A program made the translations under genes and the position numbers. From the NCBI GenBank assembly GCA_001799845.1, contig MGUG01000044.1:20-64019 (forward strand): DNA of 64,000 nucleotides. The letters are read 5' to 3'. A model generated the notes under the pieces. It had not been told where the DNA came from. It ran no database searches and worked only from the letters and a program-made list of their open reading frames with translations. Below, piece by piece: positions 9,573-42,646 of the stretch. Origin of the DNA: Elusimicrobia bacterium GWC2_64_44. Its GTDB lineage: Bacteria; Elusimicrobiota; Elusimicrobia; Elusimicrobiales; UBA9959. Position 1 is the stretch's first letter. Each line of letters starts with the position of its first letter.

Positions 9573-9650
9573 AAAGCGGTGGTTAGAGAACTGCGTCAGG
9601 TCCCCCGGCCTCGCCCGGGTAGGCCGGGCGGGCCGCGGAACGGGCGGACT

Positions 9651-10523
9651 TTAGAACTTCAGGCCGGCGCCGATGGACACGAAGCTGTTGTTCTCGTCGG
9701 CGTAGTTGAAGATCTGGTAAGTCACGTTGGCGACCACCATGTTCAGGTCCACGTAGCCGCCGAGCATGATGGCGGAGCTCTCGTCGGTCTTGAGGGCGGA
9801 GGAGCCGTTCTTGTACTTGGTCATGGTGTAGCCGGCGAACGGCGTCACCATGGGCAGGGTGGACGGGATGTCCACGCGGGCGTTCACGCTGGAGCGGGGC
9901 ATGTTGGCCGTCAGGAAGGTGTGGCCGGTCACGAAGCCCTGGGGCGTCGCGTCCTCGTCGCCGTAGCTGTAGCCGGTGAAAGAGGCGGAGAGGTTGAGCA
10001 TCAGCACCTTCGCGCCGGCGAACAGCGTGGCCGCCGTCTGCGTGGTGTCGAGGTCCGAGGTCCCGGCGGAGTTGGTGTGGATGGTATGCTTCAGGGCCGC
10101 GCCCACGTCCACGCGGGTCACGCCTTCACCGCCGCGGGCCATGCCGCGCGAGCCGGGGCCGGCCAGGCGGGACTTGCCGCCGGAGGTCGGGGTCAGGCTG
10201 AAGGTGATGTCGGCGCCGACGTATTTATTGGTGTAGTTGTTCACCTCGGGGGTGGTACCCACCTCGCCGCCGACGGTGTACTTCTCGGTCTCCAGCGCGC
10301 CGCGCAGGCCGATGGTGCTGTAGTCCTTGTCCAGGGCGTCCGAGGTATAGCGGGTCAGCGAGGGCTCGAAGGCCAGGTTCTCATGGCCGATGAGCACGTT
10401 CAGTTTATAGGAACTGTAGCCGTCCGGGCCGGTGGTGCCGGTCAGGCCGCCGTCGAAATACCAGGCGGAGGCATTGAGGCCGAGCCCGGCCACCAGCGCC
10501 AGCGAAACAATGAGTTTTTTCAT
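9651..10523 (-). CDS. Outer-membrane beta-barrel protein (signal peptide, C-terminal Phe)
   Basis: Preferred start is MKKLIVSLALVAGLGLNASA (an RBS AAAGGGGA lies upstream). Alternating hydrophobic beta-strand pattern. Ends ...SIGAGLKF, as classical OMPs do. Confidence 0.6.
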   Translation of the reverse strand: MKKLIVSLALVAGLGLNASAWYFDGGLTGTTGPDGYSSYKLNVLIGHENLAFEPSLTRYTSDALDKDYSTIGLRGALETEKYTVGGEVGTTPEVNNYTNKYVGADITFSLTPTSGGKSRLAGPGSRGMARGGEGVTRVDVGAALKHTIHTNSAGTSDLDTTQTAATLFAGAKVLMLNLSASFTGYSYGDEDATPQGFVTGHTFLTANMPRSSVNARVDIPSTLPMVTPFAGYTMTKYKNGSSALKTDESSAIMLGGYVDLNMVVANVTYQIFNYADENNSFVSIGAGLKF

Positions 10524-10581
10524 CTTTAATCCCCTTTTATTACCGTTTTTCTCTAACCTAAAGCCGTTAAATCTCCCCATC

Positions 10582-10610
10582 ATTATACGATTTTTGCCTC
10601 CGCCCCATAA
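10582..10610 (-). promoter_or_regulatory. Possible promoter of the OMP gene (TTATGG-17-TATAAT)
   Basis: Minus strand has TATAAT at 10587-10582 with a weak -35 TTATGG at 10610-10605 and 17-nt spacing. Lies just after the gene F terminator. Confidence 0.35.
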
Positions 10611-10612
10611 AT

Positions 10613-10645
10613 AAAAAACGCCCCCGGGGAGCCGGGGGCGTTTTT
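10613..10645 (-). terminator. Rho-independent (bidirectional-looking) terminator after island gene F
   Basis: AAAAAACGCCCCCGG-GGAG-CCGGGGGCGTTTTT: a 9-bp GC stem flanked by A- and T-runs. Confidence 0.75.
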
Positions 10646-10664
10646 CATGGTTTATGGAACTGCT

Positions 10665-13600
10665 TTAGTTCTCGCAGGTGCCGACCGCGGTGCGGTAGTT
10701 GGCCGGGACGGTGCCCATGAAGGCCGCGCAGTCGCTCTTCTTCTGGCGCACGTACTGGATGCGGCTGTTTGCGGACTGGTTGGCCTGGGTGAAGGCCTGG
10801 TTCTTGGCGTCGAACCTGGTCTCCACCTTGCAGACGGCCCAGCAGGCGTTCTCGCCTATCACGCCGTCGCAGCGGTCGTCGCACTTTTTAAAGGCCGCGT
10901 CGAAGGTGGCTTTGGCCCTGTGTGAGGCGGCCACGGCCACGTCCATCTCCCTGCGGGCGTCCTGTATGGCCTGGTTCTTGGTCTGCAGGGTGGCCCGGAA
11001 GGCAGCCGCGCGCTGCGGATCTATGCCGCTGGTGCCGGAACCCGTGCTGGTGCCGGTGTTCGTGCCGGTGTTCGGCTTGGTGTTGTGGCCGGTGTTAGGA
11101 TGGCTGGGGATGCCTTCGAGGCGCTTCACGGTAGCAGCCGCGGGGGCGAACTGCGCGTGGGCGTTGTTGAAGGCGGCCTGCTTCTCGTCTATCTGCCGCT
11201 GTATGGCGGGCACGTCGGCGCCGGGCCTGGCGGCGGACTCACGCAGCGCGCCTACTTCGGAGCGCAGGGTGTTCATCCGCTGCATCTGCTCGCCGGCTAC
11301 CCGCAGGTTGGAGGTGCAGGTAGTGGAGGTGCAGTTGCGGCGGCCGGCCCAGATCTCGTTATAGAGCGGCTGGTCCACGGCTATGGTCGCGTCCATGGCG
11401 CGCAGGGCTTCTACGCCGGCGTTGGAGGCGGACATCACGCCAGCGCCAGTGCCCGTGCCGGCCCCAGTGCCGGTCCCGGAGCCAGTGCCCGTGCCGGTAG
11501 CGGCGCCAGTGCCAGTACCGGTGCCCGTGCCGGTGGCGGAACCCGTGCCGGTGCCGGTGTTAGCGGCGCCGCCGGTGGGGTTGGCCAGGTCTATCTTCCA
11601 GGTATCCGCAAGGACTTTGCGGATCTGGTCCATCTCAGTCTTGACGGCGTTCATCTGGCTGACCGCAGTACCGGGGTCTACGGTGGCGTTCTTGGCGTCG
11701 TTCTTGACCTCGTCGCCGCCGCGCATGGAGGCGCCCAGCAGGCTTGCCGGCGCCAGGTTCTTAAGGTCTACTACGGAGGCGGCCACGCCGCCCTTGGTGG
11801 CGGGAGAGGTCTCGCCCCAGGCGGTGGCCTCGGCGCCGCGGCCTTCCGCGTCGTTGGGGCCCTTGGCATCGAAGGGCGTTTCCTGATTAAGGCCGCGCCA
11901 GGTGACGGGCTTTGATATCAGGGGCCCGGAAGTGCCACCCACGGCCGTCCGCAGGTCGGCAGGGGGCGCGCTGACTATGATAGTCCCGGCCGGCTGCACG
12001 GGCTGCGCCGGAGGCGTAGCCACTTTGGAATCGGCGCCTGACAGGGCCAGGAACTTTTCCTTTATCTTCGTGACCTGCTCGGCGTTAGGCTGGGCGCCTG
12101 CCAGTTCGCCCTTCAGGGTGTTCAGCTCTCCAAGTATTCCGTTGGCGGAGCCCAGCACACTGCCGGTATAGTCCTCGCTCACGCCGGCGGCCAGGGTTTT
12201 CACCTGCCCGAGCTGGCTGTTATAGACCGGCACGGCGCGCTCGTGGAAGGCTATCTTGGCGTCGGCCTTGGCTATGAAGTCCCGCTCTAACAGGGCCAAA
12301 GTGGACATGGAGCTTTCCAGATACGGCTTAACTGCCTGGCTGGTGTCGGCTGAAACGCCGTTCACGGAGCCGGCGACCAGGGTGTTGTTATTAGCAGCGT
12401 CCAGGGTCTTCTGCAGCTGGGTCTTGAACAGCCGGTACTGTGACTTCTCGGCCTCCAGCTCGCGCTTGGCCGTTACTACGGCGCGCTCATAGGCGCCCAC
12501 CTCGCCGCTCTTGCTGGCGTCGGTGCGGTTGTTGATCTCTATGACCACCCTGTCTACCTTGAGGTTAGAGAAACCGCCGGCCACAGCTATGGAATAGTCC
12601 AGCAGTTTGACCGCGTCATCTGTAGCCGCGCCGTCCTTAACATCCATCAGCATCTTTTTCAGGGTTTCGTCGTAGTCCTTGAAGACCGCGGCTATGGCCG
12701 GGGCATTGCCCGAGCCGCCGCCTGTCTCGGTGCCAGTGCCGCCTCCAGTGGTGGTTCCGGTGCCGCCTCCAGTGGTGGTACCGGTATCGCCGCCAGTGGT
12801 GGTGCCGGTGCCGCCTCCAGTGGTGGTGCCGCCGCCAAGCGCTCCGGCGAATTCATCTGCAGGCAGCACACCGCAGGGGCAGGTGTTCTGGTTGCTCTTC
12901 CAAGAGTCCACCGTCTTCTCATCGCTTGAGCGCAGGTTTTCTTTGAAGTTGCTCCTCTCGCACGGCAAGTCCTTGTTCAGTTTGCCGATACAAACATAGC
13001 TCGTAGGACCAGCGCCGGGGCCGTTGAGGGCGCGGCCAACCTGGCCGCCGAACCACTCGGCCACCTTGCCTACCACGGCGTTGATGATCTGCTTGGGGAT
13101 CTCGTATTTCTTGAAGAACTCCCACTCCAGCGCCTTGTTCATGCGCTGCTTGGCGGCCATTTCCGCCAGCGTCTCGCCCGAGCGGTTGTGCTCGTACTTA
13201 TTGTTAGAGTTGGAAGGCTTCGTGGTCTTGTCCCCGTCGCCCAGGCCGCCGGCGCCGCCGGCGCCCGCGCCTACGTTAACGGCCTCTGCCGCGGCCTTGT
13301 CCAGGGAGTTCATGGCCGAGCCGCCGGTGAAGTAGCCGGCCGACTTGTCGCTCTGGGCGCGGAGCTTTTCGAAGGCGCCCTTGGAGGAGCTGTTAGGGGT
13401 GTTGGAGGCTACGCCCTTGTAGCCGGCCATCGCGACCGGGCCCACCATGGAGCGCTTGGCAGCCGATTTGGAGGCCGACTGGGCGTCCTGGATGATCTTG
13501 CCGCCGCTCAGGCCGCCGGAGCTGCGGGAGCTCTCGCCGCCGCCGAACAGGCCGCGCATGCCGGACTGCATCTTAGGTATAGGGGTAGGGGCGCCGGCCG

Positions 13601-14102
13601 ACTTGGCGGCCGCGGAGAAGGCCTCGCGGCCCGCGTCCTTTACGGAGTCGCGCCAGCTGCTCTGCGGCGGGGGCGCCGAGGCGGGAGGCATGACGGGCTG
13701 CGCGGGCTGGGAGCCCAGGATCAGCGAGGCGGGGTCGCGGGAGCTCAGCGGGGTAATGACCTCGCCGGAGCCGTCGGACGAGCCGGTGCTGAGGCCGCCC
13801 ATGCCCAGGTCGTTCGGGCCCTCGCCGCGCTTGCCCTTGAATTCGTCGCCGGTGAGCATGTTGGTCTCGGCCGGCTGGCTCATCATGTACTCGGCGACGG
13901 GAGCCATCACCAGGACGCTGAGGCCTATGCCAACGAAAGCCATGTCCTTGCGCGACAGGTTCTTGAGCCTGTCGAAAATGCTCCCCGCGGCGCGGGAGAA
14001 CATCGGGGATTTGCCGAAAGCCGAGGTTTTCTTGAACGGCGATGCCGCTCCCGGTATTACCGGCGCCCCTGCTTTTTTGTCGTCGTCATTATAGAAGTTC
14101 AT
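10665..14102 (-). CDS. Island protein F: 1145-aa N-terminally anchored modular protein (G/S-rich region, GT-repeat linkers, long helical segments, Cys-rich modules); no family recognised
   Basis: A GGAGG RBS precedes the ATG. MNFYNDDDKK... then a TM helix MAFVGIGLSVLVMAPVAEYMM. Has a (TGTTTGGG)n tract, a GTGTGS/A tract and an NTGxNTG tract. The C-terminus is rich in Cys (KKCDDRCDGVIGENACWAVCK...TCEN). Confidence 0.75.
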   Translation of the reverse strand: MNFYNDDDKKAGAPVIPGAASPFKKTSAFGKSPMFSRAAGSIFDRLKNLSRKDMAFVGIGLSVLVMAPVAEYMMSQPAETNMLTGDEFKGKRGEGPNDLGMGGLSTGSSDGSGEVITPLSSRDPASLILGSQPAQPVMPPASAPPPQSSWRDSVKDAGREAFSAAAKSAGAPTPIPKMQSGMRGLFGGGESSRSSGGLSGGKIIQDAQSASKSAAKRSMVGPVAMAGYKGVASNTPNSSSKGAFEKLRAQSDKSAGYFTGGSAMNSLDKAAAEAVNVGAGAGGAGGLGDGDKTTKPSNSNNKYEHNRSGETLAEMAAKQRMNKALEWEFFKKYEIPKQIINAVVGKVAEWFGGQVGRALNGPGAGPTSYVCIGKLNKDLPCERSNFKENLRSSDEKTVDSWKSNQNTCPCGVLPADEFAGALGGGTTTGGGTGTTTGGDTGTTTGGGTGTTTGGGTGTETGGGSGNAPAIAAVFKDYDETLKKMLMDVKDGAATDDAVKLLDYSIAVAGGFSNLKVDRVVIEINNRTDASKSGEVGAYERAVVTAKRELEAEKSQYRLFKTQLQKTLDAANNNTLVAGSVNGVSADTSQAVKPYLESSMSTLALLERDFIAKADAKIAFHERAVPVYNSQLGQVKTLAAGVSEDYTGSVLGSANGILGELNTLKGELAGAQPNAEQVTKIKEKFLALSGADSKVATPPAQPVQPAGTIIVSAPPADLRTAVGGTSGPLISKPVTWRGLNQETPFDAKGPNDAEGRGAEATAWGETSPATKGGVAASVVDLKNLAPASLLGASMRGGDEVKNDAKNATVDPGTAVSQMNAVKTEMDQIRKVLADTWKIDLANPTGGAANTGTGTGSATGTGTGTGTGAATGTGTGSGTGTGAGTGTGAGVMSASNAGVEALRAMDATIAVDQPLYNEIWAGRRNCTSTTCTSNLRVAGEQMQRMNTLRSEVGALRESAARPGADVPAIQRQIDEKQAAFNNAHAQFAPAAATVKRLEGIPSHPNTGHNTKPNTGTNTGTSTGSGTSGIDPQRAAAFRATLQTKNQAIQDARREMDVAVAASHRAKATFDAAFKKCDDRCDGVIGENACWAVCKVETRFDAKNQAFTQANQSANSRIQYVRQKKSDCAAFMGTVPANYRTAVGTCEN
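11027..11098 (-). repeat. Coding tandem repeat in gene F (NTG/TGT-type, encodes NTGHNTKPNTGTNTGTSTGSGTSG)
   Basis: Reiterated GGTGCC/GGTGTT-type units are visible in the DNA. In frame. Confidence 0.6.
11441..11560 (-). repeat. Coding hexanucleotide repeat in gene F (encodes ~40 aa of GTGTGSATGTGTGTGTGAATGTG...)
   Basis: Runs of GTGCCG/GTGCCA units on the plus strand. In frame. Confidence 0.7.
12711..12835 (-). repeat. Coding 24-bp tandem repeat in gene F (encodes (TGTTTGGG)x~4.5)
   Basis: GGTGCCGCCTCCAGTGGTGGTNCC is repeated head to tail. Confidence 0.7.
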
Positions 14103-14175
14103 AACCGCCTCCGATCGCTAATTTAAAATCCGCCGAACGATGATATCGCGTAAAAACCGCGTATATAGTTCTCCG

Positions 14176-14209
14176 ATTATAATCTACCTGATACAGCAAC
14201 CGCTTCCAA
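14176..14209 (-). promoter_or_regulatory. Probable promoter of gene F
   Basis: Minus strand has TTGGAA (14209-14204), 17 nt, then TAGATT overlapping TATAAT (14186-14176), about 75 nt upstream of the ATG. The exact -10 choice is ambiguous. Confidence 0.4.
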
Positions 14210-14252
14210 GTGCCCTTGGACCCCTATACCGCTGGGCCCTTTGGCCCGGGCC

Positions 14253-14293
14253 GCAAAAAACCCGCCGGTAAAACCAGGCCGCCTACCGGGCGG
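14253..14293 (-). terminator. Rho-independent terminator after island gene E
   Basis: Minus strand CCGCCCGGTA-loop-TACCGGCGGG followed by TTTTTT. The stem is 9 bp with one bulge. Confidence 0.5.
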
Positions 14294-14441
14294 ACCCGGA
14301 GGAAAGTTCCGCAAAAAACGCGTTCGATGAGATGCGCACTGTGTTGCCTAAGTTTTTTAACACCGGAACTATCCTCCGAACAGGCTTTAACCGCGGGCTT
14401 AAGAAAACGCAGCAAACTTAAACCGCCGCCGCAGGGTGGCT

Positions 14442-15950
14442 TTATTCCCCTCCGGCTACCTTGCTGATAAATCCGCTGACCATATCGCCGATGGGGCCGA
14501 ACATGCTGCCGTTGCCCAGTACCGAGCCGATAGCCAGCACGCCCACTATGACGGCGCCCAATATGCCGAACAGGCCGCCCAGCAATATCATCAGGATGAT
14601 GGCCAGCCAGCACTTCCACTTGGAGCAGGGCTTGATCTTCATCTTGTTGTAGCCGGCGCAGTTCATGGGGCTGCTCTTGTTCTGGCAGGCGGCGGCGAGC
14701 TGCACCTCGTGGCCGTTATAATCGTTGCAGTAGCCGATAATCCGGTCTATCTTGCCGTTCCAGGCGCCCACGCCGCTGCTGCAGCACTTGGGCGGCTTGC
14801 CCAGCGTCTTGCCGACGTCTTCCATCTTCTTGCCGTCGTCGGACATGGCCGCGCCGTGCGTGCCGGAGGCTTCGGAGCAGGCCTTGGCCTGGTTCTGCAG
14901 GTCGCCGGCCCCGGAAATGAGGTCCCCGGTGAACGAAGTGTCGGGCACGCTGGGCGGCGACCCGGCGTCGGTCTGTATCACGTCGAGGTTGGCGTCGTTG
15001 CCGTCGTAAGTGGTGCCGGTATAGGAAGCCTGGTACTCGAGCGCCGACTCCTTGGACTTGAAGGCCGCGCCGGTCATGGCGAAGGTTTCGGCCAGCTGGA
15101 ACATGGGCTTCTTGGAGTTCAGCTTGATGTTCATCTTGGCGCTGCTGGTCTTATAGCCCACGTTCTTCCAGGAGAAGCCGGAGACGCGGCCCATGGTCTT
15201 GGTGTTGACCTTCTGCGGGGAGCCCGGCACGGGCACCTTGGAGGCCGACTGGCCCATGACCTTGCTGTACATGCCCGCCGCGCGCCCGCCGCCGGTGCCG
15301 CCGGGCCCGCTCAGCAGCGTGCGGTTGGCGTAGGGGCCGCCGCCGGAGGCGGAGCCGCCGCCGAAATTGCCCGCGAGGTTCTGGCCCATCAGGTCGCCGT
15401 AGAGGCCGCCGCCGCCCTGGCCGGCGTTCGCCAGCAGGCCCTGCAGGTCTACGCCGTCGGCGCCCTGGCCGTTGGCCTGTTCCTCGTCGTTAACCGCGCC
15501 CTTCACCTGGCCCGCGCCGCGCTTGGCGTCCTTGCCGTCCTTCAACACCGGGGGCCCGAAGATATCGTCGGCCCCGCCCCGCAGCATGGCGATGGAAGAC
15601 GGCCCGCCGCCGGGAGGCATGGTGGCGTTGATGCTCTTGAGGAACTTGGCCCAATAGGAATTCTGAGCGCTGTCCTCCGCGGCTTTGTCCATCGCCGCGC
15701 GCAGGAGGTCGTTTGAATACTTGGGGTTGATGGTGGATACGATGCTGCCCAGGCCCACCGTCCTCAGGAACGAGGCCACCGGGCCCAGCTCGAGGATCCT
15801 GCCCAAGGTCTCTCCGGAGATCACGAAGGGCACGGAAAGGATGGTGAGGATGAGCAGGATGCCCACGTATTTGGTCCTGCCCTGGAAAATAAAGAGCAGG
15901 GCCGCCAGGACCGATTTCCGTTTATGTTTTTCTACGAATTTGCTGCCCAT
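14442..15950 (-). CDS. Island protein E: two N-terminal TM helices, G-rich disordered region, 9-Cys module, C-terminal TM helix; no family recognised
   Basis: Preferred start is MGSKFVEKHKRK, after a GGAGG RBS. Cys-rich stretch KACSE...KCCSSGVGAWNGKIDRIIGYCNDYNGHEVQLAAACQNKSSPMNCAGYNKMKIKPCSKWKCW, then LAIILMILLGGLFGILGAVIVGVLAI. Confidence 0.7.
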   Translation of the reverse strand: MGSKFVEKHKRKSVLAALLFIFQGRTKYVGILLILTILSVPFVISGETLGRILELGPVASFLRTVGLGSIVSTINPKYSNDLLRAAMDKAAEDSAQNSYWAKFLKSINATMPPGGGPSSIAMLRGGADDIFGPPVLKDGKDAKRGAGQVKGAVNDEEQANGQGADGVDLQGLLANAGQGGGGLYGDLMGQNLAGNFGGGSASGGGPYANRTLLSGPGGTGGGRAAGMYSKVMGQSASKVPVPGSPQKVNTKTMGRVSGFSWKNVGYKTSSAKMNIKLNSKKPMFQLAETFAMTGAAFKSKESALEYQASYTGTTYDGNDANLDVIQTDAGSPPSVPDTSFTGDLISGAGDLQNQAKACSEASGTHGAAMSDDGKKMEDVGKTLGKPPKCCSSGVGAWNGKIDRIIGYCNDYNGHEVQLAAACQNKSSPMNCAGYNKMKIKPCSKWKCWLAIILMILLGGLFGILGAVIVGVLAIGSVLGNGSMFGPIGDMVSGFISKVAGGE

Positions 15951-16035
15951 ATAACCTCCATTGGCGAACTGCGCCGCTGGAAAAACTCCGTACACCTATT
16001 TAACGCCTTAAAATCCGCTTCCCGTTACGTCCGGT

Positions 16036-16060
16036 GCCGCCGGGCTTTAAACCCGGCGGC
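16036..16060 (-). other. Perfect 9-bp GC hairpin between island genes D and E (no T-run)
   Basis: GCCGCCGGG-CTTTAAA-CCCGGCGGC in the 136-nt D-E spacer. Could act as an mRNA stabiliser, processing site or attenuator. Confidence 0.4.
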
Positions 16061-16086
16061 AGCCGCTCTACCCCTCAAAAGACCGC

Positions 16087-17619
<1,533 letters not shown>

Positions 17620-17644
17620 AACGCCTCCCAAATATCCCTCGAAA

Positions 17645-19111
17645 CTATATACCGCTCATGATACCGCCAACAGACGACAGGCCGCTGCCGATAGACGACA
17701 GCGTGCCGCCAGCCGAACCCAGTACGCCGGGGGTAGTGACGCTGGTGGCGGGCGTCGTGCCGGAAGCCGCGGTGGTAGTAGTGGTGCTGCCCGCGCCACC
17801 TGCGTCGGAGCAGGCGCCGCCCAGGGCCTTTATGGCCTCGAGCATCAGCATCACACCGGTCAGGATGTAGATGCCGCCCATCATCTTCTGGTCGAACTTG
17901 CTGTACATCGCGAAACCGGCCATGATAACGGTGATAGCCTTAATGATGGCGAAGATGGCCGCTGCGGCCGCCAGCGCGGCGAAGATGACCTTGCCCCACG
18001 GGCCGCACATGTTGCCGATCTTGGAGAAGAGCTTGGCGAGCAGGATGGCGCCCAGGGCCCACATCATGCCGTTCATGGCCTTGTCTTCTTCGGCCTGCCA
18101 GGGGTCCACGTCCTCGGGCTTAGGCACCTTGGGGGGCGTGTACTCGTTGGAGCTCAGGCTGGGGTCGTTGCCCTTGAGGCCCGCGCCGTTGGACACGCCA
18201 GCGCCGCCCAGGCCCGCGCCGGCCGCGGGAGACCCGCTGTCGCCGCCGCTGGTCTCGCCGGTGAAGGCTTCGGTGGCGCTGGTGCGCGCGCCCGCGCCGT
18301 CGGCCGAGTAGGCCGCCTTGGCGCCCATCTTGCCGGCGAACTTGGCCTGGCCGTAAGCGCCCTTCTTATTGACGTTCGGAACCGCGTACTTAGGAGAGCT
18401 CTTGACCCGCGCCGCCGAGGCGGTCATGGCCGAGGTCTTGCCGGCGTTGGCCTGGGCCGGGGCCCTGTAAACAGGCTGGAACTGGGCGCCTATGCCGCCG
18501 GCCAGGCCGGCGCCGCCCTGCAGTTTGGGCATGGAGGACCCGCCGCCCGCGCCGCCGCCCTTGCTGCCGAAGCCGGCGTTAGCCTGCAGTTTGGGGCCGC
18601 CCGCGGCCGCCCCGCCCATGGCGGCGTCGCCGCCGGGAGCCGAAGGAGCCTCGGCAGAAGCGTCGGCGGAGGAATTGGCGGGATCGCCGGCCTCCGCGGA
18701 ACCGCTGCCCTCGCCGCCCTCGCCGCCGAGGCCGAGCCCGTCTTTCTTGGCCTGTTCCTTGAACATGTCGAGGGTTGAGGAAGCCGCGGCGGAAGCGTCG
18801 CGCGACTGCGCCCGCTCGACGCTGGCCCGGGAAGCCTCTTCTTCTATGTAAGTGTTCTGGAAGAGGTCGGGGTTATAAACCGGCTTGGAGGAGGGGCCCA
18901 CGAAGTTGTAGACCACGCCCACGCCCGCGGCAAGCGTAGCGCCGCCGAGCACCATGCCCAGTATGCCGGCTTTGCTGGCGAAAAGACCCGCGAGGCCGCC
19001 GCCGGAACCCAGCCCGGAGGAGGCGCCGCCGCCCACGACGGACGAGCCGCCGCTGCCGAAGAGCCCGCCTACGCCGGCTTTCTTTTCTTTTTTCTCGTTA
19101 TAATCGTTCAT
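17645..19111 (-). CDS. Island protein C: N-terminal anchor, G/S/A-rich loop, polytopic C-terminal membrane domain, Thr/Ser-rich tail; paralog of D
   Basis: An ATG follows the RBS GGGAGG (TTGGGAGGAGTTATGAACGA). MNDYNEKKEKK, TM ILGMVLGGATLAAGVGVVYNFV, motifs SSTLDMFKE, SSMPKLQGGAG and NDPSLSSNEYTPPKVPKPEDVDPW, then hydrophobic helices. Confidence 0.75.
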   Translation of the reverse strand: MNDYNEKKEKKAGVGGLFGSGGSSVVGGGASSGLGSGGGLAGLFASKAGILGMVLGGATLAAGVGVVYNFVGPSSKPVYNPDLFQNTYIEEEASRASVERAQSRDASAAASSTLDMFKEQAKKDGLGLGGEGGEGSGSAEAGDPANSSADASAEAPSAPGGDAAMGGAAAGGPKLQANAGFGSKGGGAGGGSSMPKLQGGAGLAGGIGAQFQPVYRAPAQANAGKTSAMTASAARVKSSPKYAVPNVNKKGAYGQAKFAGKMGAKAAYSADGAGARTSATEAFTGETSGGDSGSPAAGAGLGGAGVSNGAGLKGNDPSLSSNEYTPPKVPKPEDVDPWQAEEDKAMNGMMWALGAILLAKLFSKIGNMCGPWGKVIFAALAAAAAIFAIIKAITVIMAGFAMYSKFDQKMMGGIYILTGVMLMLEAIKALGGACSDAGGAGSTTTTTAASGTTPATSVTTPGVLGSAGGTLSSIGSGLSSVGGIMSGI

Positions 19112-19136
19112 AACTCCTCCCAATTTAAATACGGGG

Positions 19137-20075
19137 CTAGACAGCGGCGCCGAGGGGCCCGAAGACGGCGCCCAGGGCCATCTTCAGCACCATCTGTATT
19201 ATCATCATCTTTATCTGCTTCTTCATCTCTTCGCTTTCATCGGTAGCGTCCTCCGGCTTGGAGGGCGGGGTGATCTTGGTCTTGCTCAGGCTGGGATCGT
19301 TCTTCTTGAGATCCTGGGCGGTCTGGCCCATCTGCAGGCCGGCCAGCGCGGTGTTCTGCTCCATCTGGCCGTTGAGGTTCTCGCCGGTGGGGCCCTTGGC
19401 CGAGTTGGCGAAGGCCGAAGCCGCCCCGCCCTTGGCCTGGTCCATGTTGCCGGTCTTCACGGCGGACTCGCTCTTCTGGGCGCTGTTGCCGAGCATGGCC
19501 ACCAGGGAATTCTTTTTGTCCACCGCGGCCGGCTTCAGGTCGGCTTTGGTCGTGGGGGCGAACTCGGCCTTCTGGGCGCCGGAGCCGAAGAACTTGTTAT
19601 GCATGCCGCCGGCCGTCATGGAATTGGAGTTGCCGCCGGTGATGGAGGCCGCTGAGGCCAGCTTGCCGCCCTTGGGGCCAGCGGCCGAAGGGGCGCCGGC
19701 GGAGCCGGAAGGAGGCGGCGCCACGGGAGCGGAGGCCGAAGCGTCGGAAGAGGCGGCGGCGTCCGCGGTCTCCTCTTCGAGGGGGCCTGACTGGAAGAGG
19801 GAGGAAGCTATGTTCTCGCCGGAGGTGGCGGGGTTGTTTATCATCTCGCCGGAGAGCGGGGAACCGGGGGCGCCGCCCTCGGAAGAGATGTCGCTGCCCA
19901 GCATGCCGATGTCGGCCACCTTGGAGCGGAACGGGTTGCCGGCCGAAACGTTAGAATCCAGAGAGGAGCCGCTCATCAGGGGGAGGCCTATCCAGAGCGC
20001 GAGCATAATGACCGCCACAGTGCCGCCGATAGCATACTGCGTCGACTTGCTCTTTTTGTTTTGGAATTTCATCAT
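19137..20075 (-). CDS. Island protein B: N-terminal TM, S/A/G-rich loop, single C-terminal hydrophobic helix; related to C/D
   Basis: 312 aa. MMKFQNKKSKS, then TM GGTVAVIMLALWIGLPL. Motif KKNDPSLSKTKITPPSKPED, then MMIIQMVLKMALGAVFGPLGAAV. Confidence 0.7.
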   Translation of the reverse strand: MMKFQNKKSKSTQYAIGGTVAVIMLALWIGLPLMSGSSLDSNVSAGNPFRSKVADIGMLGSDISSEGGAPGSPLSGEMINNPATSGENIASSLFQSGPLEEETADAAASSDASASAPVAPPPSGSAGAPSAAGPKGGKLASAASITGGNSNSMTAGGMHNKFFGSGAQKAEFAPTTKADLKPAAVDKKNSLVAMLGNSAQKSESAVKTGNMDQAKGGAASAFANSAKGPTGENLNGQMEQNTALAGLQMGQTAQDLKKNDPSLSKTKITPPSKPEDATDESEEMKKQIKMMIIQMVLKMALGAVFGPLGAAV

Positions 20076-20173
20076 AACCCCGCCTCTTTATCCCGTTCGC
20101 CGCACCCAAAATAACTTTAAACTTTTCCTGACACAGCCCCCGGGGCGTTCAGGTCAAAGTTGATTACAGTGAT

Positions 20174-20202
20174 GTTATAGCAGACAAAAGTTGACTTGTC
20201 AA
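20174..20202 (-). promoter_or_regulatory. Sigma70-type promoter upstream of island gene B (TTGACA-17-TATAAC, extended -10 TGc)
   Basis: Minus strand TTGACAagtcaacttttgtcTGcTATAAC. Shares the 12-nt block TTTTGTCTGCTA with the gene A promoter. Confidence 0.55.
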
Positions 20203-20224
20203 GGGCACCGCTCACAGCCGGCCC

Positions 20225-21475
20225 TTACTTCGGCTTCTCCGTCACCAGCAGGTCCATGACATTTCCTTTCTCGTCATAGGTGACCTTATCATTATAAGAG
20301 ATAACAGTGCCGTCAGCGTTGGTCTGCTCTCCCTTGAATTCGCAGGTGAAAGTGGGCGGCGGCCCCTGGTTGACGGTAATGGCCCGGCTGGAGTCCTTGT
20401 ACTTGTCCCCGCCCTCGGTGGTGCAGCCCTGCCCGCAGGTCACATCGTTTATGGAATTCTGCACACCCTCCGGCAGCTGGTCCATGCCATTGCCGGTGCC
20501 GGTGCCGGTGCCAGCTCCGGTGCCGGTGCCGGCGCCCGTGCCGGTGCCGCCCTTGCCCATGGCGTCTTCCGCAGCTTTGATCGCGGCCGCGGCGGCTTCT
20601 TTCTTCATATCAGCTTCGGCCTTGTCTTTGGCGGACTGCTGAACCTTGGCGTCCTCGCCCAGGGCTTTCTTGGTGCCGTCCTCGTCCTTCACAGGGTTGC
20701 TTACCTCGGTAGTTTTCAGGCCGCCCTTCTTATCCATCTTCAGGTCGGCTATGTCGCCGCTCTTGATCTTGTCCAGGTTCACCAGGCCGCTCTTGTAGGA
20801 CATGTCGCCGCCGCCGCGGTTGCTGCCGCTGCCCAGGCCGAAGCTCTGGTTCCATTTGGCGCTGGCGGTCATGGCCGAGCCGGAGCGGAGGCCTTCGCCC
20901 AGCAGCGCCCGCGTATTCTTCAGGGTAGCCAGCGTGCCTTTGCCTTCGCCGCCGCCGGCGCCGGACTGGGATTTATTGGAAATCGAGGTGGTACCGGCCG
21001 CCGAGCCTTCGCCGAACCTGGTAGCCGAGCCGGCGGACTTGGAGCCGCCGCCGCCCCCACCGGCCAGGCCGGAGCCCCCGCCGCCCTGCATCTTGGGCAC
21101 CACGGCAGGAGAGGCGGACCGGGAAGAACTGCCGGAGGCCGAGGCCGCCGGGGCTTTGTCCATCCAGTCGGACATGTCGGGGTTGGTGGCCGCTATCCCC
21201 AGCTCGTCCAGCGGCAGGCCGCGGCTGGCGTTGCGGGCCAAGGCCGCTTCGGAAAGCTTGGGTTCATCTTCCGGAATGACGCCCATGGACTTGAAGAAAG
21301 AAGTCACGCCTTCCCTGGCGGCGCTGCCGTAAGTGAAGTTCTGGTTCTTGCCGGCCCTGGTCAGGTCGTTGGAACCCTGCACGATGAAGAAGAGGAAGAT
21401 GCCGCCGCCGGCGAAAAGGAAGGCCAGCACTGAAACTATCAGCGTCTTCCTCCGGTTGCTGGAATTGTCCTGCAT
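20225..21475 (-). CDS. Island protein A: N-terminal TM anchor, G/S/A-rich disordered region with (GT)n tract, small 4-Cys C-terminal domain; no family recognised
   Basis: Preferred start is MQDNSSNRRKTLIVSVLAFLFAGGGIFLFFIV. Has the VVPKMQGGGGSGLAGGG motif and a GTGTGAGTGTGAGTGTGTGNG tract. C-terminus ...VTCGQGCTTEGG...FTCEFKGEQTNADGTVISYNDKVTYDEKGNVM. Confidence 0.7.
   Translation of the reverse strand: MQDNSSNRRKTLIVSVLAFLFAGGGIFLFFIVQGSNDLTRAGKNQNFTYGSAAREGVTSFFKSMGVIPEDEPKLSEAALARNASRGLPLDELGIAATNPDMSDWMDKAPAASASGSSSRSASPAVVPKMQGGGGSGLAGGGGGGSKSAGSATRFGEGSAAGTTSISNKSQSGAGGGEGKGTLATLKNTRALLGEGLRSGSAMTASAKWNQSFGLGSGSNRGGGDMSYKSGLVNLDKIKSGDIADLKMDKKGGLKTTEVSNPVKDEDGTKKALGEDAKVQQSAKDKAEADMKKEAAAAAIKAAEDAMGKGGTGTGAGTGTGAGTGTGTGNGMDQLPEGVQNSINDVTCGQGCTTEGGDKYKDSSRAITVNQGPPPTFTCEFKGEQTNADGTVISYNDKVTYDEKGNVMDLLVTEKPK
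20489..20549 (-). repeat. Coding hexanucleotide (GGTGCC)n repeat in gene A encoding (GT)n
   Basis: TGCCGGTGCCGGTGCCGGTGCCAGCTCCGGTGCCGGTGCCGGCGCCCGTGCCGGTGCC. In frame. Confidence 0.7.
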
Positions 21476-21570
21476 AACGGCCCCCTGTCTGTATATGAGC
21501 AAAAAATAGATTCCCGTTTTTCACCCTTCCCTTGGCCGGGAAACTGAAAAAGCAGGTTTCTTACACTTAG

Positions 21571-21599
21571 AGTGTAGCAGACAAAACCGCTATTTTCAA
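21571..21599 (-). promoter_or_regulatory. Sigma70-type promoter upstream of island gene A (TTGAAA-17-TACACT, extended -10 TGc)
   Basis: Minus strand TTGAAAatagcggttttgtcTGcTACACT, directly after the fprA terminator. Confidence 0.5.
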
Positions 21600-24329: not shown

Positions 24330-25985
24330 CTAAACCCACATCGTGCCGTCTTCGGACCCCTGCGTGTCGCCGCCGTCATCGGGATCTTCTCCCTGCTGGT
24401 CTTCTGCAGGGGTCTCGGGCGGGGCGGCCGGCTTGGGCATCTTGATGGTCTCGCCGAAGGAGACCGTGTAGGGAACCCATTTCTTATCGACGTATTTCAG
24501 CGACAGCTGCACCCTGGCTCCGTCGGCCGTGTGCATGGTGATGTAGCCCATCTTGATCTCGTGGTCGGCGCAGACCTCCCTGGCCTTGCTGCAGGGCGTG
24601 AACAGCATGTCGGTCATGCCGCCGTACTGGTTCTCTACCTGCCGCAGGAAGGTGTGCACTTCGGTCTTGAGCTCCTTCTTGCGGTCCGCTGAAAGTTTGG
24701 AGAACTTCTCCGGGTCAGGCTTTTCCTCAGGCTGCTCCTCTCCGTCGGCCAGCGCCATCTTCAGCTGGGGCGGCTTGATAAGGGCGCCGGAGCGCAGCTG
24801 CGCCGCCGGCGGCTTTGCCGCGGCGTCCTCCTCCCTGATAAAACTGGTCTCGGCACCCTTCTGGCGCTCGTTCATCAGCGTCTTCAGGAAGTCCGGCTCT
24901 TCTTCCGCCGGAGGCGCGGCGGCGGCCGTGACCACGGCTCCGCGGGAGGAGGAGGGCCGAAAATTCCAGCCGGAAGACTTGGAGGAGTCGGAAGAGGAAG
25001 CGTCCTTAGTGTCCTTAGCGTCCTTCGCGTCCTTCCCGCCGGCCGCCGCGTCGCCGCTCTTGCCGTCGGCCCCCACTTCCTTGGCGGCGGAAGCCGCGGG
25101 CACGCCGCCGCCGCCGGCGGCAGAAGCGCCGGCCGCGGCCGCCGCGGAGGCGCCGCCCGACATCTTGGAATTATAGCTGCCCTCGGCGCCGGTGCGGGCC
25201 TGCTCCGACGCGCCGTTCAGGTCGACCGCGCCCTTCTGGCCGGGCATCTCGGACAGGCTGCCGCCTTTTCCCGGCTTCTCGCCCTGGGTCAACGGATTGG
25301 AAAACGGTCCGTCGGGAGAGCCGCCGGAAGGCAGGGAGGCCAGCTGCGGGCCGGCTGCGTCCTGCTTGCCGCCCTTGCGGCCGGGATACTTTACCCAGTC
25401 GCCGGAGGCGTCCTCCACAGAGGGGCGGGCGGGCCTGGGAGCGCGGCCCGCGGCCGCCTCTTCCCCGGCGCTTTCCTTTGCGGAAGCCTTGGGCGCAGAG
25501 CCGCCGCCGGAAGGGAGGCCGTCGTCGCCGCCGCCCCCGCCGCCGGAACTGCCCCAGGAGCCGCCCGAGGAACCGCCGAAGCCGCCGAAGCCGCCGCCCG
25601 AAGAGGCGGAGGCGCCGGTACCCTTGCCGTAGTTGCGGTTATAGAAATCCTCGAAAGGGTCTTTCTCGTCGGCCTCTTCGCCGGGCGCGTCCTGGCCGGC
25701 GGAAGCTGTCAGCGGCCCGGCCGCGGGCGCGTCGTCGCCCCAGGAAAAGAGATCGTCCACCAGGCCGCCGGTCTTGTCGGCTATGCTCTGTGCCCCGCGC
25801 TTGAAGTTGGCGGCCAGGCCCGGCTCGGGCGGCGGCTCCGGCGCTTTGCGCGAGCCGAAGCCGTACTCCATGCCGCGGACCTGGCGCTTGGCCGTGCCCA
25901 CGTGGGCCACGGCAAAGAAGCTGGCGACCAGCATGGCGCACAAGCCCAGGACTATCATGTGCGTAGGCTGTAAAGTGTTCTTCAT
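24330..25985 (-). CDS. Island-like protein G: N-terminal TM anchor, ~400 aa G/S/A/P/D-rich disordered region, ~120-aa folded C-terminal domain; no family recognised
   Basis: Preferred start is MKNTLQPTHMIVLGLCAMLVASFFAV. Contains GGGFGGFGGSSGGSWGSSGGGGGGDD and KDAKDAKDTKD tracts. The C-terminal part reads ...HTFLRQVENQYGGMTDMLFTPCSKAREVCADHEIKMGYITMHTADGARVQLSLKYVDKKWVPYTVSFGE. Confidence 0.65.
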   Translation of the reverse strand: MKNTLQPTHMIVLGLCAMLVASFFAVAHVGTAKRQVRGMEYGFGSRKAPEPPPEPGLAANFKRGAQSIADKTGGLVDDLFSWGDDAPAAGPLTASAGQDAPGEEADEKDPFEDFYNRNYGKGTGASASSGGGFGGFGGSSGGSWGSSGGGGGGDDGLPSGGGSAPKASAKESAGEEAAAGRAPRPARPSVEDASGDWVKYPGRKGGKQDAAGPQLASLPSGGSPDGPFSNPLTQGEKPGKGGSLSEMPGQKGAVDLNGASEQARTGAEGSYNSKMSGGASAAAAAGASAAGGGGVPAASAAKEVGADGKSGDAAAGGKDAKDAKDTKDASSSDSSKSSGWNFRPSSSRGAVVTAAAAPPAEEEPDFLKTLMNERQKGAETSFIREEDAAAKPPAAQLRSGALIKPPQLKMALADGEEQPEEKPDPEKFSKLSADRKKELKTEVHTFLRQVENQYGGMTDMLFTPCSKAREVCADHEIKMGYITMHTADGARVQLSLKYVDKKWVPYTVSFGETIKMPKPAAPPETPAEDQQGEDPDDGGDTQGSEDGTMWV

Positions 25986-41794: not shown

Positions 41795-42520
41795 ATGCGC
41801 GGCAAGATACTGCTGGTTGACGACGACAAAGCGCTTCGTACCGATTTCACGCTCTGGTACGAGGAATACGACATCACGCCCGTAGGCAGCGCCGCGGAAG
41901 GCCTGGCCCTCCTCAAGAAACCCAACGAATTCGACCTCGTCATAATGGACGTGCAGATGCCGGGCATGGACGGCCTGACCGCGCTGGAGCGCATCAAGGC
42001 CGCGGCTCCCGGCCGCAGCGTCATCATCATGACCGGCTACAGTTCCAAGGACGCCGCGATCCGCGCGCTGAAGGCCAAGGCCGACAACTTCATCGAGAAG
42101 CCCTTCGACCTCAAGACCATGCGCGCCGCCATAGAGCGGGAGCTGTCGCGCAGCCGCGGCGAGGCCAGCCCGGAAGAGATGGACCTGCCGGGCAAGGTGG
42201 ATCACGTCCGCTGGTTCCTCGAGGGCAACTGCTTCAAGAAGATCTCGCTCGACGACGCGGCCGCCACGGTCTACCTGACCCCCAAGTACCTCAGCCGCGT
42301 GTTCAGGGAGCAGACCGGCATGGGCTTCAACGAGTACCGCCTGAAGGTCAAGATGGCGCAGGCCAAGAAACTGCTGAAGACCACCGGCGTCACCGTAAAG
42401 CAGGTCTCCGCCAAGCTAGGATACGCCAACGCCGAGTCCTTCATCCGCCAGTTCGAAAAGATAACTGGCACCTCCCCGTCCGCCTACCGCCGCGGCCAGC
42501 GGCCCCCGAAAAAACGATAG
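41795..42520 (+). CDS. Response regulator with AraC-type HTH output domain
   Basis: REC domain with LLVDDD, DLVIMDVQMPGMDG and EKP. The C-terminal part has YLSRVFREQTGMGFNEYR...GYANAESFIRQFEKITGTSPSAYRR. Confidence 0.85.
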   Translation: MRGKILLVDDDKALRTDFTLWYEEYDITPVGSAAEGLALLKKPNEFDLVIMDVQMPGMDGLTALERIKAAAPGRSVIIMTGYSSKDAAIRALKAKADNFIEKPFDLKTMRAAIERELSRSRGEASPEEMDLPGKVDHVRWFLEGNCFKKISLDDAAATVYLTPKYLSRVFREQTGMGFNEYRLKVKMAQAKKLLKTTGVTVKQVSAKLGYANAESFIRQFEKITGTSPSAYRRGQRPPKKR

Positions 42521-42554
42521 TGGAAACAAGTCAGTAAAAGAGGGAGCCCGCCAA

Positions 42555-42583
42555 TTGTAACCGGCGGCCCCCGGGGCTATACT
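42555..42583 (+). promoter_or_regulatory. Sigma70-type promoter upstream of the REC-GspE gene (TTGTAA-17-TATACT)
   Basis: TTGTAA at 42555-42560, a 17-nt spacer and TATACT at 42578-42583, about 60 nt before the ATG. Confidence 0.45.
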
Positions 42584-42646
42584 ATGAGTGTAGGAAGCCG
42601 GGGGACGGCAAGCACCTGACCCTGGCAGGCGGTTGAAGGCGGGGTT

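Follow-up and report, generated by a model that had tools for sequence, protein, structure and literature searches.

Several groups of described bacterial envelope proteins join a membrane anchor to a long non-globular part, and three of these groups appear closest in architecture to the six genes considered here: TolA/TonB, the linker proteins of the divisome (FtsN, ZipA, RodZ), and FimV/HubP. The six genes, called A to F below, lie in tandem on the minus strand of a 64,000-nucleotide stretch (the window) of contig MGUG01000044.1 from Elusimicrobia bacterium GWC2_64_44, a groundwater metagenome-assembled genome (MAG). TolA and TonB resemble the predicted A–F products in having a single transmembrane (TM) anchor with the N-terminus in the cytoplasm (N-in), a long non-globular periplasmic part, and no enzymatic domain. 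In F, as in TolA domain II, this part is helical, and A–E share with TonB a composition rich in Pro or Gly. A role in the envelope, predicted for A–F, is a further likeness. A–F differ from TolA and TonB in lacking the C-terminal domain of either protein and nearby TolQR/ExbBD motor genes, in the anchoring of B–E at both ends, and in that their non-globular part is the most, not the least, conserved one. FtsN, DamX, DedD, ZipA, and RodZ are likewise bitopic proteins, whose low-complexity linkers contain short conserved motifs that are embedded in disorder and fold on partners. In contrast, no SPOR, helix-turn-helix, or FtsZ-binding domain was found in A–F, which have no sequence similarity to these proteins and form a six-gene cluster with paralog expansion outside the division and cell wall (dcw) cluster. 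FimV and HubP are also large, membrane-anchored, low-complexity proteins with lineage-specific repeats. However, they combine a periplasmic LysM domain with an acidic cytoplasmic region, while the bulk of A–F is predicted to be periplasmic and lacks both LysM and the FimV C-terminal motif. As far as our searches reach, the A–F module, its conservation pattern, and its paralogy are undescribed: full-text literature searches returned no description of the cluster, and the proteins are databased as "hypothetical".

The segments between the anchors (loops of 230–300 residues), which AlphaFold leaves unfolded with a predicted local distance difference test score (pLDDT) below 50 in the E and F models, are the best-conserved parts of these proteins, more so than the folded and TM parts. 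In the ortholog alignments, identity in F is 0.62 over loop 76–311 versus 0.14–0.18 over the helical ectodomain. The loop of C has an identity of 0.62 against 0.39 in the C-terminal TM region, and that of D has 0.54 against 0.34. The usual rule is that disordered, low-complexity segments evolve fastest, and a specialist may be surprised by six clustered envelope proteins whose "disordered" segments are more constant than their folded domains across the phylum. Phe and Tyr stand at or near the top of the loop residues in A–E, with identities of 0.70–0.95. In the F loop, Phe reaches 0.83 and Tyr just 0.51, and Arg and Ile rank above. Conservation in the loops is among the lowest for Ser, Thr, and Gln. 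The first-pass annotation, made from the letters of this DNA, had called these segments low-complexity. This stands as to composition, since Gly, Ser, Ala, Thr, and Asn together make up 43–55% of A–F, but does not stand in the sense of generic filler. Some likeness exists to the FG-nucleoporins, which also have Gly/Ser/Asn-rich spacers with conserved Phe and Tyr and are tethered to a membrane scaffold. The motifs of A–F differ from theirs in being unique, conserved position by position, and unrepeated; nucleoporin-like repeats were rejected in view of the mere 2–8 FG/GF dipeptides per protein. As the most constrained parts of the proteins, the loops lend themselves to testing whether conserved disorder is functional in the periplasm of bacteria.

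All six proteins have a Lys/Arg-rich N-terminus followed by one hydrophobic helix, and B–E also carry C-terminal hydrophobic helices, with GxxxG spacing visible in those of C, D, and E. Cysteines number 3 in A, 8 in E, and 12 in F against 0–2 in B–D, and the cytoplasmic tails have none. The body plan proposed in the first-pass annotation (basic N-terminus, hydrophobic helix, long low-complexity stretch) was thus recovered in every protein, together with the C-terminal helices of B–E and the concentration of Cys in A, E, and F. We infer that A–F are anchored N-in with their long segments facing the periplasm, because the N-terminal tails are strongly Lys/Arg-rich (positive-inside rule). The even-numbered invariant Cys (8 in E and the twin CX3C in F) fit a position of the loops and Cys modules outside the cytoplasm, and both features are consistent with the periplasmic side to which the same rule had been applied earlier. 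Cys-braced helical hairpins are typical of an oxidising compartment. Residues 339–437 of E and 1086–1103 of F resemble the small Tims and Mia40 substrates (twin-CX3C/CHCH) as predicted Cys-braced helix-loop-helix elements. This is a structural analogy with no sequence or Foldseek match, and the disulfides are putative. A long cleavable signal peptide formed by the N-terminal tail and first TM helix (TM1) was rejected, as no acceptable AxA-type site was seen by eye after TM1; in F, a conserved Pro at position -3, also judged by eye, argues against cleavage.

Profile-profile comparison by hhalign showed that C and D are paralogous over their full length (E 3e-40). B and C are linked at a probability of 95% (E 3e-8), and A and B, as distant paralogs, at 78% (E 2e-5). 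By these sequence comparisons A–D are paralogs of one another, and E and F are separate families. Protein A has a TM helix at 13–33, a conserved Gly/Ser-rich segment to about residue 270, and a variable C-terminal domain which holds its 3 Cys; a TM helix is lacking at the C-terminus. Protein B, which tblastn found close to full length at most loci (identity 33–94%), has a TM helix at 16–34, a conserved 250-residue loop (identity 0.57), and a C-terminal hydrophobic helix at about 284–312. Protein C begins with a cytoplasmic tail of 48 residues (MNDYNEKKEKK at its start), followed by TM1 (49–69), a conserved 275-residue loop with the terminal motif KxNDPSLS..PP..PEDVxPW, about three TM helices, and a variable Thr-rich tail. 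In protein D, a cytoplasmic tail of 66 residues leads into TM1 (67–89); the loop that follows is conserved and contains several F-G/G-F dipeptides, and the C-terminus is a multi-TM region resembling a glycine zipper. An N-terminal motif, MN(D/F)YN..(E/D)KK.G, is common to C, D, and F, and the Gly-rich N-terminal tails of these three proteins contain GLFG-like motifs.

Protein E starts with a TM helix and a helical juxtamembrane part, followed by a conserved disordered loop of 230 residues with the motif GRVSGFSWKNVGYKT…PMFQLAETFAMTG…EYQAxYTGxTYDGN, a helical hairpin at about residues 339–443 bearing the 8 invariant Cys, and a glycine-zipper-like TM helix (444–477). Its AlphaFold model exceeds a pLDDT of 90 solely at about 350–445. 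In F, a conserved cytoplasmic tail (1–54) and a TM helix (55–75) precede the highly conserved disordered segment 76–311, which has the motifs VITPLSSRDPASLILG, GPVAxAGYKGVA, KGAFEKLR, and LEWEFFKKYEI. A helix (312–360), a small Cys-containing alpha/beta domain (365–422), and a Thr/Gly linker follow. The remainder (468–1140, about 650 residues) is modeled by AlphaFold as four elongated, fast-evolving helical-bundle regions, the longest single helices having 81 residues (about 12 nm). The twin CX3C of F (C-x3-C-x8-C-x3-C) comprises C1086, C1090, C1099, and C1103. A further Cys is at position 1143, and nearly all F orthologs end with a Cys in the last 1–4 residues, which is kept although their C-terminal halves are otherwise unalignable. 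Short helices are predicted with low confidence at conserved motifs of both loops (280–298 in E, 241–256 and 263–274 in F). Such short helices within disorder are a common mark of regions which fold upon partner binding.

It is useful to trace the gene order of the cluster across different genomes. In about 50 species, nearly all loci of sufficient length retain by tblastn one collinear block consisting of a Mur ligase, a flavodiiron protein, A–F, a gene for a putative outer-membrane protein (OMP), dnaX, and recR. In distant lineages the surroundings are different. Locus L063 (GC content 56%) keeps the order A-B-C-D-E-F, with hhalign probabilities of 98–100%, but is flanked by an S41 peptidase and unrelated genes. 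Locus L062 (GC 68%) has a Ser/Thr kinase, B-C-D-D'-E-F, an 898-residue protein, and a giant protein of at least 2835 residues. In L060, E-F is followed by proteins of 1021 and at least 2878 residues, with a D-like gene and a kinase on the opposite strand, and in L064 and L065 F is followed by proteins of about 1000 and about 2500–2750 residues. Thus, in all four distant loci with a short F, this gene directly precedes a protein of about 900–1250 residues and then a giant one of about 2500–2900. N-terminal signal peptides were read in the three proteins inspected (both proteins of L060 and the 898-residue protein of L062), and no Pfam domain was found in the mid-sized and giant proteins of the two loci scanned, L060 and L062. 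By eye, the mid-sized proteins resemble one another. The kinases adjoining the module (L062:1091-2140 and L060:7002-8495) are of the Hanks type, and that of L062 may be membrane-anchored, as judged from a hydrophobic stretch at its N-terminus; the window has no Ser/Thr kinase of this type.

Since A–F keep their order even among entirely different neighbors, they form an independent module. Judged from gene order, the Mur ligase, the flavodiiron protein, dnaX, and recR are mere backbone neighbors in the window. The comparison of gene neighborhoods had been recommended as a check in the first-pass annotation, and conservation was found both in the collinear block and with unrelated flanks. The same annotation had called the cluster an orphan island, and this did not hold. 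The GC content of the A–F block (0.61–0.68) equals that of the remainder of the window, no integrase or transposase is present, and these facts, together with the collinearity in about 50 species, rule out a horizontally acquired island.

Homolog searches returned 109 clusters for F, 125 for E, and 151 for the C/D profile. Every named homolog of F, E, and C/D is from Elusimicrobia and annotated as "hypothetical", nearly all without a Pfam domain; two E homologs are labeled DUF456 domain-containing. Among the 120 clusters listed of the 151 for C/D, all are Elusimicrobia or unnamed. When one genome was scanned for each GTDB species, 51 loci were obtained, of which those named by lineage are all Elusimicrobia or Elusimicrobiota and the others just "bacterium". 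A hidden Markov model (HMM) of the conserved N-terminal 365 residues of F matched 315 representative clusters at E≤1e-3 and 253 at E≤1e-30, and the few named distant matches are "Elusimicrobiota bacterium" or "bacterium". The lineage specificity suggested earlier is thus supported, with named homologs solely from Elusimicrobia/Elusimicrobiota. The phylum Elusimicrobiota is widely distributed, few of its members have been cultivated, and its cell biology is almost unknown. Conservation over hundreds of lineages, flank-independent order, and the lack of a known family make the module a strong candidate for an envelope structure that defines the lineage. Two of the 51 loci belong to MAGs labeled Elusimicrobium sp., so the module may be testable in the cultivated E. 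minutum.

Are these open reading frames (ORFs) real genes? Public gene calls on identical contigs match all six (Table 1), which agrees with the coordinates given in the first-pass annotation. The GC content at third codon positions (GC3) of the minus-strand frames is 0.82–0.90. The ratio of nonsynonymous to synonymous substitution rates (dN/dS), calculated pairwise against one genome, the closest relative L005, is 0.14 for A, 0.13 for B, 0.14 for C, 0.09 for D, 0.05 for E, and 0.27 for F. The antisense strand is stop-free over at least 80% of the gene length in just 9–46% of orthologs. Because of the GC3 values, the dN/dS ratios, and the lack of conserved antisense ORFs, the minus-strand frames are the coding ones, and A–F are real genes under purifying selection. 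That they look like real, expressed genes had been claimed before, with dN/dS named as a check and expression evidence favoring the antisense ORFs as a possible refutation. The dN/dS ratios and the poorly conserved antisense ORFs came out in favor of real genes, and the Shine-Dalgarno-like sites and the promoter- and terminator-like signals described below agree with this. Plus-strand ORFs of 300–500 residues lie opposite the OMP gene through B (window 9579-20163); they are due to the high GC3 and could mislead automatic annotation.

No Pfam or NCBIfam family was matched by A–F or by the OMP. Pfam searches with each ortholog of E, C/D, and the OMP gave nothing consistent; two of the 54 E orthologs matched PF13488 and one matched PF13441, weakly (E 0.003–0.005). 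Profile searches against the PDB returned nothing specific for E, C/D, and the OMP and just generic coiled-coil or helical-bundle matches for F, and Foldseek of the E and F models against the PDB gave no match with E below 0.1. These searches (HMM searches on seven proteins, Foldseek on E and F) had been proposed beforehand as a check. They led to no known family, in agreement with the earlier statement that no enzyme, ATPase, prepilin, secretin, S-layer, or adhesin domain is recognizable. The sole match with E below 0.01 among the seven proteins was that of A to TolA (TIGR02794). It was rejected, with 20 bits against a cutoff of 59.45, confined to an Ala/Lys/Glu-rich stretch at residues 268–313, and Pfam found no TolA C-terminal domain. 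MotA_ExbB and ExbD families are absent among the module genes and their neighbors. Type IV pilins and pseudopilins were discarded because A–F, the OMP, and a further protein, Z (described below), have no G|[FM]T[LI]xE motif and no pilin match in Pfam. Secretins and components of type II, type IV, and type IX secretion systems or type IV pili were discarded for want of a Pfam, NCBIfam, or Foldseek match. An S-layer or adhesin is contradicted by the absence of SLH, Ig-like, and beta-helix matches in Pfam and by the folded parts of E and F, which are all-helical save for the small Cys domain. For PEP-CTERM there is no NCBIfam match and one PEP, in D, lying 10–20 residues before a 140-residue multi-TM region. 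LPXTG and twin-arginine translocation motifs are absent, as is a lipobox ([LVI][ASTVI][GAS]C) in the first 40 residues of all the proteins.

What could such a module do? We propose, with a probability of roughly 0.4, that A–F constitute a lineage-specific hetero-oligomeric structural scaffold at the inner-membrane/periplasmic face. The six products would assemble as a hetero-oligomeric complex on the periplasmic side of the inner membrane. The conserved loop motifs, several of which are weakly predicted amphipathic helices, would fold upon binding to one another, to the membrane surface, or to the cell wall, and the loops together would form a membrane-tethered meshwork. The F rod, estimated from the model at about 30 nm if its bundles lie end to end, would project across the periplasm. 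The role would be structural, for example, envelope spacing, tethering, or organization; a non-enzymatic, non-energised role is suggested because no ATPase, motor, or enzyme domain is encoded in the module. Several points weigh against the scaffold. The failure of AlphaFold on the loops is no proof of disorder. The expression of A–F and the association, localization, and effect of their products are predicted from genes and models, and the topology is predicted from the positive-inside rule and cysteine patterns. Moreover, the organism is an anaerobe, and periplasmic disulfides in it are putative. Finally, the secreted proteins of about 1000 and 2800 residues after F in distant lineages, and the Ser/Thr kinase sometimes adjacent, hint at export, anchoring, or regulated growth over a passive scaffold. 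A bolder and doubtful version would be a hitherto unrecognized type of envelope structure: a gel or membrane skeleton covering the periplasmic side of the inner membrane, in which doubly pinned, natively unfolded loops co-fold or cohere via aromatic "sticker" motifs and the F rod points toward the outer membrane. If true, it would be the first multi-protein envelope system with conserved disorder, and not folded domains, as its functional core.

The gene pairs after F in the four distant loci would be explained if the module were a platform for assembly, export, or anchoring of very large secreted envelope proteins, in which the conserved loops serve for docking or as a conduit and F is an adaptor. 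The glycine-zipper-like TM helices of C, D, and E would also suit it, as glycine-zipper helices are typical of oligomeric channels. However, no giant gene lies beside F in the window or in about 50 close relatives (flanks up to 10 kb), and the module has no ATPase, secretin, or energising or outer-membrane component and no similarity to secretion systems, so that we regard this platform with doubt. It is unlikely, in our view, that A–F are accessory factors of cell-wall growth, division, or morphogenesis, analogs of FtsN, ZipA, RodZ, or TolA, possibly controlled by Ser/Thr phosphorylation of the conserved cytoplasmic tails. A bitopic architecture with a disordered linker in the periplasm is characteristic of divisome and Tol proteins, the cytoplasmic tails of C, D, and F are rich in Ser and Thr as well as conserved, and a Hanks-type kinase, with a putative membrane anchor in L062, lies next to the module in two of the distant loci. 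Just upstream, the window lineage has a Mur ligase, with a seventh protein of similar style, Z, on the far side of this gene. The kinase, however, is adjacent in two of five distant loci (two of the five end just upstream of F) and missing from the window, the Mur ligase linkage is lost in distant lineages, and Pfam and NCBIfam found no SPOR, LysM, PASTA, FHA, or TolA C-terminal domain.

An inverted or mixed topology, in which the low-complexity segments are cytoplasmic and form a membrane-bound landmark or condensate like FimV/HubP, could draw on the sticker-and-spacer composition with conserved aromatics and on the Gly-rich, GLFG-like N-terminal tails of C, D, and F. We consider it very improbable: every N-terminal tail is strongly Lys/Arg-rich, which speaks for N-in, conserved even-numbered Cys occur in the helical hairpins of E and F, including the twin CX3C, and FG-type dipeptides are sparse. 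The notion that there is no functional unit at all, just unrelated conserved hypothetical genes on a syntenic backbone or partly spurious GC-rich ORFs, might appeal to the equal collinearity of the flanking Mur ligase, flavodiiron protein, OMP, dnaX, and recR genes in close relatives and to the long ORFs on the opposite strand. It is scarcely credible, as the distant loci, where the A–F order outlives the change of all flanks, largely refute it, and the paralogy of A–D, purifying selection on all six genes, and unconserved antisense ORFs tell against it as well. Some function outside all these readings is rather improbable but should be kept in mind beside the scaffold.

Table 1. Positions of the module genes, signals, and neighboring features; positions are those of the window unless a locus is named.
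Feature	Position	Strand	Length	Public gene call	Remark
A	20225..21475	-	416 aa	416 aa	
B	19137..20075	-	311-312 aa	311 aa	
C	17645..19111	-	488 aa	488 aa	
D	16087..17619	-	510 aa	510 aa	100% identity to A2X32_11960 (Elusimicrobia bacterium GWC2_64_44)
E	14442..15950	-	502 aa	502 aa	
F	10665..14102	-	1145 aa	1145 aa	
Putative outer-membrane beta-barrel (OMP)	9651..10523	-	290 aa		Signal peptide
Z	24330..25985	-	551 aa		Same strand as A–F, immediately upstream of the Mur ligase
Terminator-like hairpin following the flavodiiron gene that precedes A	21645-21616	-			Predicted from sequence
Sigma-70-like promoter preceding A	21599-21571	-			Predicted from sequence
E-F intergenic region	14103..14441	-	340 bp		Hairpins and TATAAT box
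GC-rich bidirectional hairpin with T-runs directly after F	10614..10645	.	14 bp		Predicted from sequence
Mid-sized and giant gene pair after F, L060	12838-22733				
Mid-sized and giant gene pair after F, L062	12587-22517				
Mid-sized and giant gene pair after F, L064	3782-13664				
Mid-sized and giant gene pair after F, L065	3790-13727				

Shine-Dalgarno-like purine-rich sites precede all six genes. The GGAGG type had been claimed for every one of them, and the exact sequence is found at C, D, E, and F, with GGGGG at A and GAGG at B. The sigma-70-like promoter and the terminators of the earlier description could also be located, as a promoter-like site before A and hairpins upstream of this site and after F (Table 1). 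The gap between E and F contains two terminator-like hairpins (14429-14409 and 14293-14265) and a TATAAT box about 70 nucleotides upstream of F, and an E-F spacing of 180–360 bp is retained among relatives. The hairpins and the box suggest that F is transcribed apart from A–E. The strong hairpin directly after F is likely an intrinsic terminator that closes the module and parts F from the OMP gene. A resemblance to the Rfam Thr_leader at 10611-10670 on the minus strand (29.6 bits against a gathering score of 55) was dismissed as almost certainly a chance match to this terminator hairpin.

The product of the gene after F is presumed to be an outer-membrane beta-barrel, as it ends with a C-terminal Phe and has 10 beta-amphipathic segments against 2.9±1.6 in shuffled sequences. 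Thirty orthologs gave no Pfam match at E≤0.05 and a PDB profile search gave nothing below E 1; the known families OmpA, porins, OmpW/X, and FadL were not matched. Extra genes lie between F and the OMP gene in 25 of 41 relatives (among them L008, L009, L015, L024, L035, L046, and L053), and in 8 of 11 such loci inspected one of these is a deoxyhypusine-synthase-like gene of about 346 residues. Elsewhere, Sel1-repeat or further genes are inserted, and the window has no deoxyhypusine-synthase-like gene at that spot. In the distant clusters, F is not followed by a homolog of the OMP. Because of the terminator, the intervening genes, and this absence, the OMP is probably a syntenic neighbor and not a component of the module. 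The first-pass annotation was therefore right about a barrel-like gene with a signal peptide directly after F, but probably not in assigning it to the island. The dN/dS of the OMP gene against L005 is 0.52, compared with 0.05–0.27 in A–F, and such fast evolution would fit a surface-exposed protein under diversifying pressure.

Protein Z, on the far side of the Mur ligase and similar in style to A–F, comprises a TM helix at the N-terminus, a segment rich in Gly, Ser, Ala, and Pro in which GGFGGFGG runs occur, and about 90 C-terminal residues forming a domain with Cys. It has no Pfam match, no detectable homology to A–F, and no relatives in the metagenome scan. Farther away, at 41795-47016 on the plus strand of the window, a type II/IV secretion ATPase of the T2SSE type is fused to an N-terminal response-regulator receiver domain. 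Its flanking genes encode a REC-AraC regulator and a PAS histidine kinase. From its sequence, this fusion looks like a pilus or secretion ATPase directly under two-component control.

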